Of a DNA stretch of 64,000 bases, positions 28,490-43,700 are shown piece by piece; position 1 is the first letter of the stretch; every line of letters starts with the position of its first letter. Origin of the DNA: Prorocentrum cordatum (lineage: Eukaryota); assembly GCA_963575745.1 (NCBI GenBank), contig CAUYUJ010000002.1, positions 1,426,001-1,490,000 of the forward strand, given 5' to 3'. The translations under genes and the position numbers were made by a program. The notes beneath the pieces were generated by a model. The model made no database searches. It was not told the origin of the DNA and saw only the letters and a program-made list of their open reading frames with translations.

Positions 28490-28530
28490 AATGCTGATGC
28501 TGATGCTGATGCTGAGGCTGAGGCTGATGC

Positions 28531-28580
<50 letters not shown>

Positions 28581-28737
28581 ATGAGATGATGAGGATGAGG
28601 ATGAGGATGATGATGATGATGATGATGCTGATGATGATGCTGCTGATGATGATGATAATGATAATGATGAAGATGAAGATGAAGATGAAGATGAAGATGA
28701 AGATGAAGATGAAGATGAAGATGAAGATGAAGATGAA

Positions 28738-28831
<94 letters not shown>

Positions 28832-28842
28832 ATGATGATGAT
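28490..28842. repeat. (GAT)n / (GAAGAT)n microsatellite
   Basis: Direct observation; continues as GAT/GGT runs at 29230-29600 and CAT runs at 29970-30130. Confidence 0.95.
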
Positions 28843-29257
28843 GAGAGGAGGAGGGATGCGGGGGAGAGGGAGAAGGGATGGGGAGAAGGAGGAGGCAAGA
28901 GGGGGCAGGAGGAGGAGCTATCTAGAGTTCTGGAGGTCGGAGGAGGAGAAGCATCGGCGAGCGCCCTCCCGGGCAGGCCAGCGGGGGGCGGGTCGGTCTG
29001 CGCACGAGGAGTCGGTTTCTGGCCCGGCTCGGCGCGTTGCCCAGATGGTTGGTTTGTTTCCCGTCAGGGACGGCCAGGGGGAATGGTGATTCGGGGGTCA
29101 CTACCCACGAAATCACCCAAAGCCAAGCCAACCCGAAGGCCCCAAGTTGCCCTCCGTTTCCAGCGGGGGGGCATCCCAGCATCCCAAAAAACACTGAAGG
29201 AACGCAGAGAAGCGCAGAGGGAATGCATGCTGATGGTGCTGATGGTGCTGATGGTGC

Positions 29258-29305
<48 letters not shown>

Positions 29306-29970
29306 CGATGACGACGACAATGAGGAGGCTGGTGGTGGTGGTGGTGCTGTCGTTGCTGCTGCTGTTGTTGATGGTGATGGTGATGGTGATGGTGACGATG
29401 ATGGTGGCGATAGTGATGATGATGATGATGACGGTGATGATGGTGGTGCTGGTGATGGTGATGGTGATGATGATGCTGATGATGATGGTGGTGGTGATGG
29501 TGATGATGCTGATGCTGTAGATGATGATGCTGATGACGCTGATGATGTTGATGATGATGATGATGCTGATCATGGTGATGATGCTGCTGATGATGATGTT
29601 GAGGAGGAGGAGGAAGGAGGATGGGGCATAAGGAGGAGGAGGTGGAGGAACGAAGGGAAAGAGGGATAAGGATTCGAGGTAGGAAGAGAAGTGCATCGAT
29701 TACGACGAGGATGCGAAGCAGAAGGGGCGAAAAGCAACAACAAGACATGGGGGGATCGACTCGTCAACACTGTCCCTAGGAATCTCGTCCTGCACTGCCG
29801 CTGCACACCGTACTTGTCGGCACCATCCTTGCTCCCTCTGCCTCCTCGTCTTTCTCCTCCTCCTTATCCGCTGCTGCCCGCATCCTCTCATCCTCCTCCG
29901 GAACCACGAGCATCATTATACGTGTCCTCCGCCTCGGCCACTATCCTCCTACTCCTCATACTCCTCCCAC

Positions 29971-30055
<85 letters not shown>

Positions 30056-30903
30056 CAGCATCAGCATCAGCATCGGCATCGGCATCGGCATCGGCATCAG
30101 CATCCTCCTCCTCCTCCTCCTCCTCATCCTCATCCTCAACCACCACCATCGTCAGTCCTCTCCCTCTCCGTCCCCGTGCTTCTCCTCCTCCTCGTCCTCC
30201 TCATCCATCTCTCCGTACACCACCATTCTCTTCCTGTCCTCACCCTGCCCTCTCCTCCCCTCCCCCAACTTCTCGACCACCGAGGTCGACGAAGGAGACG
30301 ACGACAACGACCCCATCGAGGGAGAGCAGGGCGTCCTACAGTGACCTCCATCAGCTGCCTGGACTTCACGTTCATCACCGTTCCGCTGGCCTGTCGGTAC
30401 CCTTCCCTCGTTTCTCTGCTATTATGCATCTCCGCTTCCTTCGCCTCCTCAACATCCCCATGCTCGACCTCCGTCCCTTCGTCCTCCACTCCTCCACACG
30501 TCTCCGCCTCTTCCTCCTCCTCCTCCTTCTCCTCCTCCGCTTACACCTCAAAGGGAGGGCGAGAACGAGGACATTTGCCGGCCCAACGGGCCAGGGGCGT
30601 GCTAAGATCTCCTGTAACTGGTTAAACCTATTTCTAATTCGCGCGCGCGGAGCGGCCCCTGGGGCCCCCGGACGAAACGTACCCCGGCAAGGTTTCGGGA
30701 GAAGCCCCCAGAGCACTCCAGGGGAGGGCCATTTTTTGACACCCCTCACGAGGATCGTGGCCGCCGAGGGGGGAGCCGCAATCGACTACCCCCCCTCCCG
30801 CCCCAAGAGGCCCCCCCAAACCCCCCAACAGGCCATGGGGGGCCCCAGGACGCCGCCAAGGAGCCCCAAGAGACTCCCAAGAGGTCCCCAAGGGGCCCCC
30901 AAG

Positions 30904-31235
30904 TGTCAATGATAATGGCTATGAGCCTCTTTTCCACGAACTGTAAGATCCGCTCGGTCGATCAATATGAAATGGTGCCAGTCGCACCACACACGCACAC
31001 AGCTGATGAAATCAGGGAAACCCCAATCAAAGCCTGGAGCACATCTGATAATTTGATATCGCTGTCTGGCTCAAAAAAGGGATCCCCTGATATCGTTTGA
31101 GAAGCAAACGGCCATGGAAATACAACATGGCATACCATGCAACATAAAACTCCTCAAGCCCTTGAAAAGGGCGTTCAACTCACTAGCTGCTTATCTACTG
31201 CGTTTCGGGCTGTCCCTGAAACTCTCATCTTCACA
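30904..31235 (-). repeat. 3' LTR of copia #1 (332 bp)
   Basis: tgtcaatgataatgg...ctctcatcttcaca; ~16 substitutions plus one 4-bp indel versus the 5' LTR by manual alignment (~95%). Confidence 0.95.
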
Positions 31236-31415
31236 CAGCACATTAACTTTGCAGCTTCAGAAACTGGAGACCAGCAGCCTGCATAAATAACCTTCTGCAC
31301 TGCATAAAAGGAGCTGTGCTCTGAAAATCACATAAAAGGCTCGGCCCAAACCAGCCGAACAGCAACCGTTCGCACATCAAGCATGAAACGAAACAAAACG
31401 AGTTTCGAATAACCA

Positions 31416-31577
31416 TCAGATTTCCATAAGGATCCTCCGAACGAGGTCTGCTTTGAGCCCCGACACTGGGAGGTTCATTTCACGCAAAATGCCCTGCAAC
31501 GCATACACCGGCATAGCCTCAAGCTTCTTCTGTACGTCCGGTGTGTAGGGCATGTGAGTCATTCCTAGATAGTCCAT
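31416..31577 (-). pseudogene. SAP-domain-like C-terminal segment of the copia #1 polyprotein
   Basis: Manual translation MDYLGMTHMPYTPDVQKKLEAMPVYALQGILREMNLPVSGLKADLVRRILMEI*; in frame with ORF 31611..31805 across one TGA. Confidence 0.75.
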
Positions 31578-31729
31578 ATTCCGCGCAGCACTGCTCGGAG
31601 ACAGTTTGAGTCAATTGCCCGGTGGTCTTGCCACGATCTCCCTGGAGCTGGCTGAATGCGAAAGTGCATCCGTTGTCGGCACCAACTCCGGCTTGTATGT
31701 CTGAGAGGCAATAAACAGGAGTACACAAA

Positions 31730-33862
31730 TCAAGCCATGAAAACTGCACCGAATGAAACTCCTGCGGCAAACGTCCCAGCTGGGGACAGCAAGCACTGAG
31801 ACCATTGGTCAAACGGCTCGGCCAAGACATAAGTTGAAACTTGTTGGCCGATCATCGGCCCAGTTAATGCTACTGCTGCTGCCGCCGCTGCAACCTGTGG
31901 CAACGTTGTACCTGAAGAAAAACTGCTTGCCAGAATGCTGGGAAACAGAGCTGCACGCTTGAATCGCGAAGTCCTAGTAGTCATCGATGTGATCACTTCC
32001 ACCTGATAAACCATCTCATGCACATCAATCCTCGATATGTCGTTATCTGCACTGTAGTCCTTGGGCTTGGCGTAGTTGGCGTTCAGGTAATCGGCATCAC
32101 CCTCCAACTCAACTCGCTGAGCACGCTGAATCTCGTCCCAGGGGTCGGTAAGCTTCCGCTTCCTGAGTGAGGGTGCTCGGGGATCTGGTCCGAAAGTCCA
32201 TAGGTTCTCGTGAAAAACTCGATCTTGGCACGGGGTATCCATCTTCTTGGTAAGGCCGTCGGCCAGCTGCTGCTCAGATCGTACCCATTTGATGCCTCCA
32301 TGCTGGCACTCCTGCCCGATAATAGCTGCTTCCAAGGAGAGCCTCCGATCTGATAGATGAACGCGCTCCTTGACCACACAATTCCACAGAGAACGACAAT
32401 CTGTCACCAAAACACCCTTCCACTCTTCTGCTGCCTGACGGCACTCATGCCCCAACTTATTCGCTGGAAAGATATCTGCACACACGGCGCGTGTCCAGAA
32501 TGCGACGTCTTGAGCTTCAGAACAACTGTAGGCCTCCGCCGAGAGGGCACTGCGTACTGCAAGACCAATCCGCCCACTTGACCAGGACAATAGCATGCAT
32601 GGGTATAACTTGTTGTGATCGTCCATGATAGCACCATCTCCCACCATGATATAAAACCCACGCTGGCTCTTGTGGTTCGGCATGTTGTCGAAAGACGCGT
32701 CATACGATGCAATGGTGACCGATTTCTCGAAATCAAAACCACCACGAAATATCATCTGCATCTTCCCCTCGCGCCAGATAGAGCGTACAAGACTGTTCAT
32801 GTCTTTCATGTCCTGTACCGTCGGCTTCGTCATCTGGCCTGCCAGCCTTGATGCCCCGAAACTGTATTTGTGGAGCAGCAGCATCACTACCCACTGAACC
32901 TGTCCGTTCATGCCACGTAGTGCTCGATGTTCGGCTGCTGTGAGTAGCTCCTTGTCTTGCTTGGCCCTCTCACGGGGCATGCGGTAGTCGGTCATCCCGT
33001 CAATGTAGTTGTCCATGTCGATCGCGATGACAAAGTCCTTGTCCTGCTTGAAGCGTCGGCCTGTGAAGGTAGCACCTTCGGGTGAGCCTTGAAGATCGTG
33101 CCAGTCACCGAACTCCACCTGCTCCTTCAGCTCACCGAACTCCACCTTGTCGAAAGCCATGAGCATGTCATCCACGTGCAAGCATAAGAGTCCCACCAGC
33201 TCCCCATTGTGCATAAGCTTGAAGGCCGCAGTCTCGAACTGCAGCTGCTCGAAACCGACCTGCTTCAGGATCTGGACAATCCGCTTGTACCAGGCCCTCG
33301 CCGCGTCGCTGGTGCCATAGATGCTCTTGTTGAGCTTGAGCAAACTCCCTTCTTCCAGTCCAGGAATTGTCATCCCCGGCATGCTCTTGGGCATCTTGAA
33401 GTACAGCTCTCTCTCGATCTTGACGCCCTGCAGGGAAGCTCCAGCGGCGTCTCCAGCAAAGCACGAGAGCCGCTTGCACGCCGAAGTGCTACACAAGAAG
33501 TTCTGCATGAAAGGCGAGCATATCGGCAAATCTCGTCGTAGCTTCTCATCGTACTTATCCTGGAAACCCTTGCCCACGATGCGACACTTGGGCCGGGAAC
33601 TGGCATCGTTGCCGCTGCCTTTGTTTGTCCAAACTGCGCGGCTCTCGATCTGCAACGACTTGTCAATATTCTTGGCCATCGCAGGGGCGATGACCGTAAC
33701 TGCGTCGTACTTGGTCCAAGTACTCCATTCCTTGATGAGCGCGTTGAGGCATTTCTCGGTGCGCTCCCTGCTGTATTGATCGTCGTATCTCAACGCATCC
33801 TTGATTTCCATCTCGCCGTTGGTAGCACGATCGGCTCGTTCAGCTGCGAACGACTCGCGCAT
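31730..33862 (-). pseudogene. pol: Copia #1 reverse transcriptase + RNase H, with hydrophobic C-terminal extension
   Basis: KCRIVGKGFQD, LNKSIYGTSDAARAW, LHVDDML; RNase H SYDASF, SAEAYS, VTDCRSL, QLADGLTK. Confidence 0.95.
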
Positions 33863-35064
33863 AACCTTGTTGGTCGAATATGATATGCGGTACGTGTCCC
33901 CTTGTCGTTTGCTGTCGTCAGCGTGTTGAGGCCGATGTGTGCTCGACTCTGGTAGATGGTGTCAGATGCTGGCGTCTTCCTCTTAAGCCTCCGCCTCTCG
34001 CCGCGATCGCGATTGGCGCGTTGCCGTGCTCGCTGTCGCTGGCGGGTACTGTCTGCATCAGGATCCGCAGAGGTGGTAGGCGGTGCGCTGCTCGCCCCCC
34101 GAGTAGCCGTCCGTGCTGGAGCCGGGTTGTCCGGCCCATAGGACTGAGGAGCCCCTTGAGGTTCAGTACCCTCAGGAACACCTCCAGGGGCATGTCCTTC
34201 CGAAGGGTCCTGCGCTGTCCGATGAGTAAACTCTACCACGATGTCGGTCATGTCCATACCTCGCACCAGAGGAACGTCGAAAGGCACATCCAGGCTGTTG
34301 CGCGCCAGGTCCACCATCATCACCTTGGTGTTGCAGTCAAAGATACGTCGCCGTAGTGGCCGATCTCGGGGTATAACATCTTCTTCATGTAGTGGTGTCA
34401 TCGTGCATCGTGCAATCCTGGTTGTCAGGATGGCGTCGTAGGGCCCACGAGGCTGCGAGCCAATGAGCATGGCCCACGACTCTGGGATATTCCACGAACC
34501 ATCTGGCCACTCTGCTTCAACCCGCCTTCGCCGTGCAGGAGGTTGGCCTTCATAATCAGCGTCGCGATCTTGAAATTCCTCCATGTCTTGTCCCTGCGGT
34601 GCCGGAGGTGGCGCAGGATCTGGTGGCTGATCAGGCGGCGGTCGTGGTTGGATCCCAGGTTGTAGAGGCTGTCGTGGTTCAGTGAACGTGGCATTGCGCA
34701 AATCCACGAAGCCGCGCTGTCCATGCGGAACTCCTCGCCATTCACGCTGATCTCCAGGAATGCGATCCTCGATCTCATTGAGCGTCGACCTCCGGAGGAT
34801 ATTAGGTCCAGCCAGAATAGGCATGCCGTTGTGGATAAGCCAGTAGCCGAACTGGTCCCTCCCAATCACACGTGCTGGTCCCTGCCATTTACGATGTTGA
34901 TCGCGTTTTCCTCCACCTGCGCGCCGGTAGTGAACCCGTTCGCCGCGCTCGACAGGTCCAGGCTGAGGTCGCGTCTTTGATAGCACCGCTCGTCGTAGGG
35001 TTGAGCTGTTGGCCGCTTGGTGAAATGCGACCTCACATGCTTCTGAAGCCGTAGGCAATGCCAC
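33790..35064 (-). pseudogene. pol: Copia #1 post-integrase region (WQGPARVIG motif) and linker
   Basis: GERVHYRR...KWQGPARVIGRD; frameshifted between the IN and RT ORFs. Confidence 0.8.
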
Positions 35065-35830
35065 ATGAGAGATCCATGTGCTACTTGGCCTGCAACAACA
35101 GGATCAGCATTGATATCTCCAAGAGATGCCGGTAGTGATGGGTTCTCTCCAAGGACCCACTGCGCTGGGGAAAAACCCTTATTGTTCGATAGGCGGTCCA
35201 TGGTCTGAGCAATCTGATAACCGGCGACCTTGGCGCTCTCGTCATCCTTCACCTCGAGCTCGCCAAAGACCTTGGTGGCCATCTCCTTGAAGAATCGAAT
35301 CTTCCGCTCCACCTTTCCATGTTGATGATGCCCTTCTGGGGCAACTGGAACGCATGGAACTCCGAGATCTTCGCAGAAAACTTCGAACTCCAGACGAAAG
35401 GCCGCATCTTGGTCAAGCTGAAACCGCTGTGGGGCCAATAGTGTCCGCTGCCAGCCCTCCACGAAAGCCGTCTTGGCGCGGCTTGAAGTGGGACTTGGCT
35501 TGCGGTTGCCACCACTGATCATCCATTGTATGGCGGCGTAGTCGGTGACCAGGTCCAGCATGAGCAAGTAGGCGTGCATGTTGCCGTTCAGGTCAGGCGC
35601 GTAGGCGATGTCCATACCAAGACATTGGTTGAACTTGGTCCACTTCGGTAGGCTTGCGATGGGATGCGCTGGCGGTCGTTGCTGAGAGTCGCACAGCTCA
35701 CACTTGAATAGCTTTGCCGCTGAAGCCGCCGCCGGCGATCCACCACCTGCCTGAATATGTCGTGCCAAATCTTCGCCTCGAAGTGCAGGTGAAAACTGAA
35801 CGTGCAGCTTCTTGATTGCCGCCTTGAGTG
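34866..35830 (-). pseudogene. pol: Copia #1 integrase (HHCC + DDE)
   Basis: KLHVQ..KCELC; GMDIAY; QLDQDAAF; PEGHHQHGKVER; GFSPAQWVLG. Confidence 0.9.
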
Positions 35831-35984
35831 CTGCTGGTGCTTGCTGCCATTGTTGATGGGTCTCCGCGTCTGAGCCCATGATGAGGCCTGAGCTTGACGC
35901 GAAGCCCGTAGCGGGGCATGCGTCAGTGGCGTCAGGAACTCCCAGGATGATCTCTCCACCCAGAAGCTTCTCCAACTCATATTG

Positions 35985-36575
35985 TTGCTTCGTGCCCTCG
36001 AAGATCCTTTCTGCCAGGTCCGGGGACCAGACTGCAAAATCACGTGACTTGCCGCCTCGGCCTTGAACTTCACCATGTCCGTGATCTCCTGCGCACCGAA
36101 CTTCCAATGCATATGCCAATGCCGCCGCTGTTGTCACAAACCGCGTTGGCTTCTGAAGCAACTCTCCACGATCGTCTCGTAGGTCGAAGACACACTGGTC
36201 ACATCGAACCCAGATCAGCTCCGGCGGGAACTCGTCCTTGATGATGTTCCACACCTGTGAACAAAGGGTTCTCCAGCAAAACATGTCTGCCATGTGTCAG
36301 TCGATGCTTGACGATATGTAAAGCAAATCGTACATGTGCCGGCGCCTTCGCGCGGCGCCTGCGCCGCTCCTTCTCCGAGTAGAATTGTTGATGGGCGATC
36401 GTGAGGCACGGGCCCTCATCCTCGATTTCCCGCATCGTAGCTGCTTGGACACTTGGCAGTAGCAAGTCCTCGCCAGTGGTGCGTAAATCCTTGCATTGGC
36501 CAGTCCTGAGTCCACAGCTGCCTGCGAGCTTCGCGACGTTGCACTCTCCGCCGCATATATCCTTCACTGCCGTCC
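35985..36575 (-). pseudogene. C5-cytosine DNA methyltransferase-like domain in copia #1
   Basis: DICGG (motif I-like), DLRTTGEDL, GRHVLLENP (motif VI), CDQCVFDL..QKPTRFVT, RCAGDHGH, AVWSPDLA; the motif IV PC is not clearly intact. Confidence 0.75.
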
Positions 36576-36829
36576 CAGGAACAAGCAGTCGACGTTGATC
36601 CTTGCGTAGTACATTCCAGGTCGCACGCTGTATAAATGCGTTGTCCGCGATCCAGACGCCCACCTGCTTCTTCCGGGACTTGGCCATGATGCCGGTGTCC
36701 CTCACCGCAGTCGTGATCTTCTCGATGGCCGCTGTCATATACTGCGACTCGTCCTCCTTCTCGGCCGCCCATGCATCCAGCGCCTTTGTGCTGATCGTCG
36801 GTGCCTCGAGCTGCGTCGGCTCTTTTGGA

Positions 36830-37819: not shown

Positions 37820-38675
37820 TTGGAGGGCGAAAGAGGGGGTCTGCAACAGGGGGTCTTCAATGGGGGCTGAATGGCCCATGTATGCTCAATGTATCGCTCA
37901 CGTATGTGATCGGGTACGGTTGGCATCCAATGCTGGCGGTCATTGATGGCCAGTCATTCGTGCCCGCGCGTTGCCCGCGCGGGCACGCGCGCGGTCCATC
38001 CATTATCGTTCATGCGTGCGGGCGTTATTGCATATTGCGCGTGGGTCGGCGAAGTGGAGTGCAAGTGTGTCTTGATTGTGCGGTTGATGACCGCCTATGT
38101 TCCCAAACGATGACTTCTCGACCCCCAAGACAGATTTGGAATGGGCCCCGCGATTCTCCCAAAATGTGAATTCACATTTTCCTTTTTCCCAAAATGTGAA
38201 TTCACATTCTGGTCCCTTCATAAAGAATCCTACACAAAATTCCAAAATGTGAATTTACATTTTCCTGTTTCCCAACATGTGAATTCAGATTTTCCTTTTT
38301 CCCAAAATGTGAATTCACATTTTGCTTTTCCCCACAATGTGAATTCACATTTTGCCCTGGTCTTCAAGATCCCCAACGCTGAAGCGCAGTGTTCCGCATG
38401 TCAGATTGGCTGGGCAGATTTCGACACTCACCTGACGGCTTTCGTGTGTTCCAGCCTTTTCTTTTTGCGCCCTTAGCGCCCGTTGCCTTCGTCGTCTTTC
38501 CCGAGCCCCCCGCCCCCTTGCTTCCCCCCCCCTAAAGTCTCGCGCGCGGGCGCAGGCGGGGGGCTTCAATTAGTTCCCCCGCCGAACACAGCAATCGAAG
38601 ATGCATCGCCCATTCATGGCCTTAAAAAACATCATTGCCGGGGCCCTGCGCCCGACCCCCACTTTCACCCTCCAA
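37820..38675. mobile_element. 856-bp non-autonomous DNA transposon, 22-bp TIRs, 5-bp TSD CCACC
   Basis: ttggagggcgaaagagggggtc versus rc ttggagggtgaaagtgggggtc; ccacc at 37815-37819 and 38676-38680. Confidence 0.92.
38161..38353. repeat. Six copies of the 20-bp palindrome AAAATGTGAATTCACATTTT at 30-bp period
   Basis: Copies at 38161, 38191, 38244, 38274, 38304 and 38334. Confidence 0.92.
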
Positions 38676-39459: not shown

Positions 39460-39665
39460 TGGGTCTGCGAACTCTGTGATGTCCTTGAACTCTGTGAGGT
39501 TTATGAACTCTGTGAGGTCTGTGAACTCTGTGAAGAACTCTGTGAGGTCTTTGAACTCTGTGAGGCCTGTGAGGTCTGGAAACTCTGCGAGGTCCGACTC
39601 TGTGAGGTCTGGGAACTCTGCGAGGTCAGCCTCTGTGAGGTCTGTGAACTCTGTGAGGTCGGTGA
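39460..39665 (-). repeat. 18-bp tandem repeat in the copia #1 leader (encodes TEFTDL)
   Basis: gaactctgtgaggtctgt units; ORF 39349..39834. Confidence 0.85.
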
Positions 39666-39785: not shown

Positions 39786-39799
39786 GCTCCGCACTACCA
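39786..39799 (-). promoter_or_regulatory. Primer-binding site TGGTAGTGCGGAGC (probably initiator tRNA-Met)
   Basis: 1 nt inside the 5' LTR; TGG pairs with tRNA CCA; TGGTAG implies A73/U72 as in initiator tRNA. Confidence 0.75.
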
Positions 39800-39800
39800 G

Positions 39801-40128
39801 TGTCAATGATAATGGATATGAGCCTCTTTTCCACGAGCTGTAAGATCCGTTCGGTCGATCAATATGAAATTGTGCCAGTCGCACCACACACACAGCTGAT
39901 GAAATCAGGGAAACCCCAATCAAAGACTGGAACACATCTGATAACGTGTTATCGCTGTCTGGCTCCAAAATGGGATCCCCTGATGTCGTTTGAGAAGCAA
40001 ACGGCCATGGACATACAACATGGCATATCATGCAACATAAAACTCCTCAAGCCCTTGAAAATAGCGTTCAACTCACTAGCTGCTTATCTACTGCGTTTCG
40101 GGCTGTCCCTGAAACTCTCATCTTCACA
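39801..40128 (-). repeat. 5' LTR of copia #1 (328 bp)
   Basis: Matches 30904-31235. Confidence 0.95.
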
Positions 40129-40495
40129 CAAGAAACCTAAAGAGGGCTCCAGGGCCAGCGGAATGAGCGAAGCGATTAAATAAGTCAAGAAAGCAGTGAG
40201 TAGGAGGAGGGAGGATGAGTAGGGGGCGGAGCAGTAGGAGTGAAAGGGGCAGGAGGGAAGGGGATCTGGGAGGAAGCGGGAGAAGGGAGGGGGAGGTGGA
40301 GGGTGCTGTGGAGGTAGGAATAGGAGGAGTCGGGGGGGGGGGGGGGGGGGGGCACGCAACGGCGGCCGGGCCAGGCGGTGGCGCCAGTGGATGGCGTCTG
40401 AGGGGCAGAGCCCTCCTGCAAGCCCCCAGCCTTCCCCATAGCCGACCCCCACTGGCGGCGCACCACGGGGGGGAAGGGTGCGCGACGATGGCCCC

Positions 40496-41719: not shown

Positions 41720-43700
41720 CCAGCTTGCCCCGCTCTGGGGCGGTAGGAAATCACATCCTTTCACGCGTGCCCAGCCCTGGGGCGTTAAGAACCCACGTGG
41801 TGTCACGCTTGCCCCGCTCTGGGGTGTTAGGGACCCAAATGTTATCACGCTTGTCCCACTCTGGGGCGTTAGGAGCCCATGTGTTTGCATGCATGTCCCG
41901 CTCTGGGGCGTTAGGAACCGGCACGTGGTCATGCTTATTCCGTTATGGGACGTTAGGAACAATGTGTTTTCACGCGTGTCCAACTCCAGGGACTCCAAAA
42001 GTTATCCCGCCTGTGCCGCTCTGGGACGTTTGGTTTGGGACGTTAGGAGGCCAAGTGTTGTAACGCGTGTTCCACTCTGGGGCGTAGGGAACCCACATGT
42101 CGTCACGCGTGTCCCGCTCTGAAGCGTTGGGAACCCACGTGTGGTCTCGGTTGTCCCTTTCTGGGGTGTTAGGAGCCCACGTGGGTTCACGCTTGCCCCA
42201 CTCCGGGGCATTAGGAACCCACGTGTTTTCACGCTTGCACTGCTCTGGGGCGTTGAGACCCCACGTGTTGTCACGCTTGGTCCGCTCTGGGGCGTTAGGA
42301 ACCATGTGTTTTGAGTGTGTCCCGCTCTGGGGCATTACGAACTCATGTGTTGTCACTCTTGCCCCGCTCTGGGGCGTTTGGAACCCGTGCATGGTCATGC
42401 TTGCCCCGCTCTGGGGCGTTAGGAACCCGTGTCTGGTCACGCTTGCCCCGGTCTGGGGCGTTAGGAACCCGTGCATGGTCACGATTGCCCTGCTCTGGGG
42501 CTTCAGGAACCCACATGGCTTCAAGCTTGTCCCGCTCTTGGGAGGTAAGGCCCCACATGCTTGCACGCCTGTCCCGCTCTGCGGCGTCAAGACCCAATAT
42601 GGTTTCACGCGTGTCCCGTTCGTGGGTGTTGGGGACCATATGTGTTCTCGCTTGTACCGGTCTGGAGCGTTCAGAAACCCACGTGCGTTCACGCTGAACC
42701 GATGTGGTTTAACGCTTGCCGCGCCCTGGAGCGCTACGAACTCACGTGTGCCCGCGCATGCCTCGCCACTGGGCGTTAGGAACCCACGTGTTTTCACGCG
42801 TGACCCGCCCTGGGCGTTAGGAACCCATGTGTTTTCACACGTGTCCTGCCCTGGGGCGTTAGGAACCCATGTGTTGTTACGCTTGTCCCGCTCTTGGGCG
42901 TTACGGATCTACGTGTTTTAACGTGTGTCCCGCTCTGGGGCGTTAGGAACACGCATACTTTCACGCGTGTCACGCTCTGGGGCGTTAGGAACCCATGTGT
43001 TGTCACGCTTGTCCCGCTCGGGGGCGTTAGAAACCCACATGTGTTCACTCTTGCCCCACTCTACGGCGTTAGAAACTCACGCATGTTCATGTATACCCAG
43101 TTCTGAGGCGCGAGGCACCCACATGGTGTCATGCTTGCCCCGCCGTGAAGCATCATAAACCCAAACGTTGTCACGCTTGGTCCGCTCTGGGGCGAAAAGA
43201 AAGCAGCGTGTCTTCACGCTTGTCCCGCCATGGGGCATTAGGAACCCACGTGTTGTTACGCTTGTCCCGCTCTGGGGCGTTAGGACCCCACGTGTTGTCA
43301 CGCATATCCCGCTCTTGGGCGATACGAACCCACGTGTTTTCACGCTTGCACTGCTCCGGGGCGTTGAGAACCCACGTGGTTGCCCGCTTGCCCTGCTCTG
43401 GGGCATGAGGAACCGATGTGTTGTCACGCGTGTCCCGCTCTGGGGCGTTAGGAACCGACGTGATGTCACGATTGTTTGTTCCGCTCTGGGGCTTTAGGAA
43501 CCCACATGTTGTTAGGTTTGTTCCGCTCTGGGGCGTTAGGAACCCATGTGTTGTCACGCTTGCCCCGCTCTGGGGCGTTAAGAACCCACGTATGTTCGCG
43601 TTTGCCCTGCTCTGGGGCGTTAGGAACCCACGTGTTTTCACTATTGTTCCGCTCCGGGGCGTTCGGAACCCACGTGTCATCACGCTTGTTCGGCTCCCTG
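41720..43700. repeat. 42-bp tandem satellite (gggcgttaggaacccatgtgttgtcacgcttgccccgctctg)
   Basis: aggaaccc at 42421 and 42463 etc.; ~45 copies. Confidence 0.95.

Follow-up and report, generated by a model that had tools for sequence, protein, structure and literature searches.

The 64,000-nucleotide stretch of Prorocentrum cordatum DNA analysed here (the window; GenBank assembly GCA_963575745.1, contig CAUYUJ010000002.1, positions 1,426,001 to 1,490,000) carries on its minus strand a copia-type long terminal repeat (LTR) retrotransposon of ~9.2 kb, in which the coding sequence runs on past RNase H into a tail with a transmembrane (TM)-like segment and a terminal SAP domain. We find that this tail is a real, and apparently undescribed, accessory module of LTR elements. 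The element is assigned to the copia type because its pol frame, P0003 (31730..33961, minus strand, 743 aa), matches the Pfam family RVT_2; with LTRs that are 94.0% identical across 336 columns, it is an old copy of a multi-copy Ty1/copia family. An original prediction, made from the letters alone, had proposed a copia polyprotein with this membrane-plus-SAP ending. All the peptides it quoted were found on the minus strand, and the copia assignment was borne out by both RVT_2 and the LTRs. Coordinates of the features are collected in Table 1.

A SAP domain ends the coding region

The fit to the SAP consensus that had been proposed for the last frame (P0001) held when the frame was run against Pfam. 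It matches SAP (PF02037) at 32.9 bits, against a cut-off of 23.9 (E 4.7e-8), over profile positions 3-33 of 37. When a profile was built solely from four relatives, it retrieved P0001 at E 2.5e-20 and nothing else among the window's 1171 six-frame open reading frames (ORFs) with a length of 30 aa or more. AlphaFold2, run on a five-sequence alignment, predicts a helix at residues 35-44, a loop and a second helix at 53-63 with a per-residue confidence (pLDDT) of 82-86, and the top Foldseek rows for this model are the SAP domains of Tho1 and DEK (root-mean-square deviation 0.5-0.9 Å over 35-36 columns, probability 1.0). Owing to the small size of the domain, the accompanying Foldseek E-values are weak, at 0.15-0.4; when PDB sequences were searched with a profile, the Tho1 SAP was hit at E 6e-5. 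The last domain is a true SAP, a solid call that goes beyond chance resemblance.

The domain shares its profile and its helix-extended loop-helix fold with the SAP domains of Tho1, DEK, SAF-A/B, PIAS and Ku70, and its core, LPVSGLKADLV, aligns with Tho1. It differs from all of these in its setting, which is the coding-region end of an LTR retrotransposon, downstream of a membrane segment. RVT_2 and SAP are the only Pfam families found at E ≤0.01 in the element interior (61 minus-strand frames of at least 40 aa), and because Pfam recognises only these two across the whole element, we take the lineage to be very divergent.

The pol frame continues past RNase H

P0003 continues for 156 residues past the RNase H region before it meets a stop at 31730-31732. 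Its tail consists, in order, of the motif WTFGPDPRAPSLRKRKLTDP, an acidic linker, the basic patch MTTRTSRFKR, a Ser/Ala-rich hydrophobic stretch (segment 1), ~25 mixed residues and GTFAAGVSFGAVFMA; the C-terminal part of the frame reads ...RFKRAALFPSILASSFSSGTTLPQVAAAAAAVALTG...SPAGTFAAGVSFGAVFMA up to its stop. Within the motif, residues W151, T152, G154, D156, R158, P160 and R163 are invariant or nearly so in 14 sequences, and a basic RKRK cluster looks, by eye, like a nuclear localisation signal (NLS). A second frame (...GLICVLLFIASQTYK...PPGN-stop-LKLSPSS...LEAMPVYALQGILREMNLPVSGLKADLVRRILMEI-stop) takes over at the break, where it begins ICVLLFIASQTYK...PPGN; a TGA follows, and then 64 codons that end in LEAMPVYALQGILREMNLPVSGLKADLVRRILMEI. 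The single TGA ahead of the SAP frame was thus correctly anticipated and lies at 31611-31613, and the final stop (31416-31418), expected ~180 bp before the 3′ LTR, is 178 bp from it.

Related copies of the element share this arrangement. Public run X1 (DNA contigs) holds 57 contigs on 31200-32400, 6 of them at ≥99% identity, 14 at 95-99%, 20 at 90-95% and 17 lower; no contigs matching that interval were found in runs X2 and X3. The listed X1 pieces tile the tail (31407-31564, 31506-31637, 31585-31818 and 31713-32395); other copies therefore have TM and SAP in the same linear arrangement, and the SAP is no private insertion of this one. All three X1 contigs that cover the break at 31730-31732 show a one-base length difference there (depth 26.4 of 26.4), which brings pol into the same register as the frame that reads ICVLLFIA and makes the break private to the window copy. 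The contig covering 31407-31564 has no indels. In a contig at 81% identity, indels occur only as compensating pairs of one base, eight bases apart (31854/31862 and 32099/32107), and its loose end after 31713 stays in phase (by hand translation, AISQKFNKPE for the window's IASQTYKPE). One close protein relative, P0008, enters the third frame (P0002) after GAVF; judged from its protein, it has the family's extra base together with one further private length change. P0002 itself, open for 110 aa, was considered as a coding frame and ruled out; it has no similarity to the SAP relative P0154 (E 0.75).

The listed differences among the copies are for the most part synonymous in the proposed frames. 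In the substitution test, 40 of 219 differing places were listed, as chosen by the tool, and three of the 40 fall outside the frames. Across the whole tail (31416-32200), 18 of the 31 listed places are synonymous and 13 non-synonymous (p 4e-4), where a synonymous share of 0.28 is expected at a transition/transversion ratio of 3; when the two remaining frames are used instead, the synonymous count for these 31 places is 4 and 8. By part, synonymous and non-synonymous counts are 5 and 1 at the RNase H end (p 0.006), 10 and 6 in the hydrophobic/TM part (p 0.006) and 4 and 2 in the SAP frame (p 0.047), with no significant departure in the linker (3 and 3) or from segment 2 to the TGA (1 and 2). 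We interpret these counts as a sign of purifying selection acting on the tail in the proposed frames, on the basis of the listed places only. GC content by codon position in the SAP frame (.58/.36/.64) resembles that of pol (.55/.41/.66), and the pol pattern is absent from the stretch after the SAP frame (.42/.51/.42) and from the hydrophobic part (.52/.61/.45). The claim that a real coding sequence, common to a family, follows RNase H is upheld by the related contigs and the synonymous excess.

Protein relatives extend the tail beyond the immediate family. A HMMER search with RNase H plus tail against 1.84 billion representatives returned 679 proteins at E ≤0.001, the best 150 of which were listed. 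P0006, P0008, P0010 and P0036 are close fragments that span the tail at 80-90% identity; P0015, P0029 and P0068 keep it at 50-65%, and P0068, at 50%, retains the basic patch and hydrophobic segment 1. P0034 is a single open protein of 374 aa, 40% identical over the matched stretch, in which RNase H is followed by a WTLGPD motif, an acidic linker, MRSSR, a TM (2.33 on the Kyte-Doolittle scale), a Cys-rich loop, a second TM (2.49) and 119 further residues. These last ~119 residues differ from SAP and are not matched by Pfam, so that the module following the membrane hairpin may be one that can be exchanged between families. P0016 shows RNase H, the linker and one TM (2.11). No related DNA was found in metagenomes (queries P0003 and the SAP alignment), viral contigs, prokaryote genome contigs or phage records. 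The combination of WT[LF]GPD motif, linker, basic patch and TM can serve as a marker with which to look through protist genomes for an entire clade of these elements.

A possible membrane tether

Our tentative reading, to which we give somewhat less than an even chance, is that the tail serves as a nucleic-acid-binding tether to a membrane or the nuclear envelope, SAP being joined to Pol by read-through or through an ancestral fusion. The pol gene would then extend beyond RNase H into a selected accessory tail composed of basic motif, acidic linker, basic patch with segment 1, a ~25-residue loop, a strong TM, a 31-residue linker and SAP, with TM and SAP parted by one TGA in the window copy and, it appears, in the majority of its related copies. 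Such a tail could anchor Pol, or a ~190-aa cleaved product, as a hairpin in the membrane of the endoplasmic reticulum or the nuclear envelope, and both ends, Pol and SAP, would be left on the cytoplasmic or nucleoplasmic side. An N-in hairpin is predicted because the basic patch precedes segment 1 and an acidic loop follows it. SAP would be added by occasional read-through of a weak TGA-C stop or, alternatively, would have been fused in an ancestral form; a TGA followed by C is the weakest eukaryotic terminator context. At the membrane SAP would bind DNA or RNA, DNA (S/MAR) or RNA being the usual ligands of SAP domains, and the replication or integration complex would thereby be held there, beside chromatin. 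Two features of the sequence agree with a join to Pol: the SAP and TM frames share one phase, and the 71 codons that separate segment 2 from the SAP match hold a single stop; and P0034 illustrates that a further region behind the second TM can belong to the Pol protein.

Several observations tell against this tether, and the first of them concern hydropathy. With the break read as X, segment 2 (GVSFGAVFMAXICVLLFIA) reaches a peak 19-residue Kyte-Doolittle mean of 2.41, and the Ala-rich segment 1 peaks at 1.41, under the usual threshold of 1.6. Of the window's 1171 ORFs, 133 attain 1.6 and 60 attain 2.4, for the most part in simple repeats, and hydropathy alone is weak evidence in so GC-rich and repeat-rich a window. 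Since hydrophobic 19-mers are this common, the case for a membrane segment has to be made from the relatives and the substitution pattern. Among the 25 relatives with at least 60 residues past the WT[LF]GPD motif, just three have a segment at ≥1.6; many end earlier. In P0034 a strong first TM follows an R/S-rich basic patch that, by eye, corresponds to the one here. The substitution test is itself limited to the places that the tool chose to list. The predicted membrane segment stands in part: segment 2, read across the break, is strongly TM-like, segment 1 falls below the threshold, and membrane insertion and topology are predictions. A chance origin of the open frames and hydrophobic runs, out of the GC-rich, non-coding DNA that separates RNase H from the LTR, would account for the many hydrophobic 19-mers and for the lack of a pol-like third-position GC pattern in the hydrophobic part. 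It is close to refuted and in our view highly improbable, given a SAP match that is the sole such frame among the 1171 ORFs, a synonymous excess limited to the frames read and a tail conserved in relatives down to 50% identity.

The remaining points against the tether concern the join between Pol and SAP. No variant at the TGA appears among the listed places, and high-share variants are listed nearby at 31571, 31584 and 31599; most related X1 copies therefore probably share the TGA. SAP occurs in none of the best 150 of the 679 Pol relatives (best E 0.38), and no longer protein with this SAP was found among 22 candidates. Its closest relatives, P0154, P0155 and P0157, start with Met, measure 81-98 aa and come from contigs of 513-659 bp; they are 58-63% identical to P0001, score 33.6-36.8 bits against Pfam SAP, and all end at one common place ~10 residues past the domain. 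BLASTP to P0154 spans read-through residues 49-102 (34/54 identical, E 2e-20) and not the stop at residue 41, and homology to these SAP relatives begins 8 residues past the TGA. In the MAFFT alignment a residue of P0154 and P0155 faces the stop; this was not counted as evidence, as BLASTP does not extend there. Nor does a stable RNA structure follow the TGA (z = +0.77; 152 of 200 shuffles fold as well).

Several of these observations are what would be expected if there were two products, with Pol ending at the TGA and SAP made as a separate protein of ~53-98 aa through reinitiation, internal entry or a subgenomic or spliced RNA, an arrangement comparable with the extra small ORFs known from other LTR elements. 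The TGA without a listed variant, the short Met-started SAP relatives with a common end, the homology that stops short of the TGA and the missing SAP in the best 150 Pol relatives all suit it. It has to explain why the first ATG past the TGA lies 11 codons in and yields only 53 aa, why TM and SAP share a frame (a 1-in-3 chance if they are unlinked) and why P0034 carries a further domain after its second TM in the same protein as RNase H. We consider two products possible, if rather unlikely. The single frame from RNase H through TM to SAP that had been proposed survives up to the TM, to which pol is joined in the three contigs across the break; for the part beyond, the probably shared TGA and the Pol relatives speak otherwise, and translation of SAP as part of Pol is a proposal.

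The same stop ahead of SAP, the same lack of SAP in the best 150 Pol relatives and the likeness of the nearest SAP relatives to small independent genes would also fit passive cargo: a fragment of a host SAP gene, perhaps including the part after segment 2, captured by the family ancestor, unused, and well preserved since the family is young. Opposed to this are the 4 synonymous differences among the 6 listed in the SAP frame, the pol-like codon-position GC of that frame and the indel-free contig over it, all three on small numbers, as well as a Pfam SAP score still well over the cut-off. We regard passive cargo as unlikely.

Comparison with known systems

The tether reading brings to mind the LEM/HeH proteins of the inner nuclear membrane (Heh1/Src1, Heh2, LEM2 and MAN1), which have an N-terminal LEM or HeH domain, two TMs and a C-terminal MSC domain. 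Like them, the tail combines a helix-extended-helix domain with a two-pass hairpin, and places a basic NLS-like cluster and an unfolded linker before the membrane part. Unlike them, it has its domain after the membrane segments, lacks an MSC/winged-helix domain and has a weakly hydrophobic segment 1. No frame in the element interior matched Pfam LEM, HeH or MSC; with a C-terminal domain and one strong plus one weak hydrophobic segment, the tail is placed outside the LEM/HeH family. By analogy, it may nevertheless work like these membrane proteins. A more specific version, which we think quite improbable, is that the end of Pol forms a miniature inner-nuclear-membrane tether, in which NLS-like cluster, unfolded linker, membrane hairpin and SAP/HeH-type domain act together, a leaky TGA sets the dose of SAP, and the reverse-transcription/integration complex is carried along the nuclear envelope to peripheral chromatin. 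No retroelement is known to us that enters the nucleus and chooses its targets by a membrane-bound route. Production and membrane insertion of the tail as proposed would imply that retrotransposition has a membrane-bound step and that integration sites can be selected in a new manner; in that case the tail would also represent convergence with the cellular LEM/HeH proteins of the nuclear envelope.

Env-like ORFs are known from LTR elements such as the plant Sireviruses and Athila, and encode a large ectodomain. An env-like ORF is separate and has a signal peptide, a large ectodomain and a C-terminal TM; here the tail is in frame with pol and the stretch between the hydrophobic segments is merely ~25 residues, so the "env-like position" of the original prediction does not describe it. 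A second comparison is the FAST-like sORF2 of Drosophila MDG1-group elements, which the accessible part of a preprint describes as a separate single-TM protein of 63-107 aa, screened by an N-myristoylation motif (MGxxxS/T) and with a polybasic tract after the TM (bioRxiv 10.1101/2025.03.14.642691). In the present tail SQTYKPELVPTTD follows the TM, and it has neither the myristoylation motif nor the polybasic tract that this part of the preprint gives for sORF2. Env-like ORFs and sORF2 share with the tail that they add a membrane protein to an LTR element besides gag-pol, and none is known to carry SAP.

Chromodomains and DnaQ-like exonucleases are well-known accessory domains of LTR elements, according to the portion of PMC6338049 consulted. 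The chromodomain of chromoviruses, at the C-terminus of the Ty3/gypsy integrase, is like the SAP tail an accessory module that ends Pol; it reads chromatin and is thought to steer integration. It differs in fold and superfamily, in standing on the integrase and in having no membrane segment. SAP has been reported in other transposable elements, in Zisupton DNA transposons and in the Penelope-like element Chlamys-1_pPol, where it likewise serves as an accessory DNA-binding domain (available sections of PMC8557442). On the same sections, Zisupton differs as a DNA transposon from the Ty1/copia LTR element studied here, and Chlamys-1_pPol has its SAP between the RT7(E) motif and the reverse transcriptase (RT) thumb rather than after RNase H and a TM. 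Chromodomains, extra nucleases, env-like genes and small fusogen-like proteins are known additions to LTR elements; a TM anchor after RNase H with SAP behind it is not among the accessory modules that the literature searches turned up. In full-text literature searches, subscription journals and Repbase aside, neither SAP nor a TM tail after RNase H was met in any LTR element, in agreement with the earlier statement that no description of the architecture was known.

Other features of the element and its surroundings

The element had also been called "DNMT-carrying", that is, a carrier of a DNA methyltransferase (DNMT). That label was not sustained: DNA_methylase (PF00145) has no match in Pfam (61 of 61 frames), NCBIfam, PHROGs or PDB sequences. 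At 35700-36790 on the minus strand, an insert of ~250 aa, split by a frameshift, lies between a protease-like VLDTAA and the integrase-like region; it contains ICGGECNV.., VLLENP and DQCVFD..KPT, stretches that by eye are spaced like methyltransferase motifs I, VI and VIII. The insert has an Atlas lead of 0.75 to a cluster with PF00145 in 13% of members, and its single-sequence fold has a pLDDT of 34.9, too low for a verdict. In Symbiodinium, DNMTs reside in long interspersed nuclear elements (LINE) and DIRS elements, and copia elements are without them, as stated in the available passages of de Mendoza et al. 2018 (PMC5890265).

Table 1. Positions in the window of the LTRs, coding parts and signals of the copia-type element
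Feature	Position	Strand	Remarks
5′ LTR	39799..40130	-	332 bp aligned to 336-bp 3′ LTR; starts TG, finishes ..CA
Primer-binding-site-like TGGTAGTGCGGAGC	directly after 5′ LTR	-	read by eye
Integrase-like frame (..GMDIAYAPDLNG.., HH..CC-like stretch upstream)	34866-36296	-	by eye; DDE-like stretch, upstream of RT
Reverse transcriptase, Pfam RVT_2 (copia type)	32999..33652	-	residues 104-321 of P0003; 58.8 bits, E 7.8e-16
Motif WTFGPDPRAPSLRKRKLTDP, end of RNase H region	32141..32200	-	conserved across clade
Acidic linker	31991..32140	-	aligned in P0006, P0010, P0015, P0029, P0068
Basic patch MTTRTSRFKR + Ser/Ala-rich hydrophobic segment 1	31844..31984	-	19-residue Kyte-Doolittle peak 1.41
Hydrophobic segment 2, TM-like (TFAAGVSFGAVFMA X ICVLLFIA)	31707..31774	-	19-residue Kyte-Doolittle peak 2.41, X at break
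Pol-frame break (stop in frame 1)	31730..31732	-	window copy
31-codon linker after segment 2 (SQTYKPELVPTTD...PPGN)	31614..31706	-	
In-frame TGA, C next, between TM frame and SAP frame	31611..31613	-	
64-codon SAP frame (P0001)	31416..31610	-	stop 31416-31418 included
SAP domain proper	31428..31520	-	residues 31-61 of P0001; Pfam, predicted fold
Non-coding stretch of 178 bp before 3′ LTR	31238..31415	-	without codon-position GC pattern
3′ LTR	30902..31237	-	336 bp; inner edge 31237

The integrase-like frame, like every other interior frame among the 61, has no match to Pfam rve, and no matching target-site duplication was seen by eye at the element ends. Neither Rfam nor tRNA matches were found in the whole window. 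Among 17 other large ORFs, 16 of them outside the element, no Pfam domain exceeds its cut-off (sole row Hid1, 17.7 bits against 22.5); long open frames on both strands of the window stem from GC-rich low-complexity DNA.

Repeats occur within and around the element. Inside it, 38157-38353 holds 6.8 copies of a 30-bp unit, between the gag-like and zinc-knuckle frames; each unit contains a palindrome around GAATTC (AAATGTGAATTCACATTT), and either a nested insertion or an internal repeat could account for the array. A tandem array of 18/33-bp units (39462-39665) sits close to the 5′ LTR on its inner side and, on the minus strand, reads as DLTEF-type peptide repeats. Adjoining the element, ~2 kb of 42-bp tandem repeats (41723-43696) form several blocks with up to 23.7 copies, and ATG/ATGATG simple repeats occupy 28491-29602 on the opposite side.

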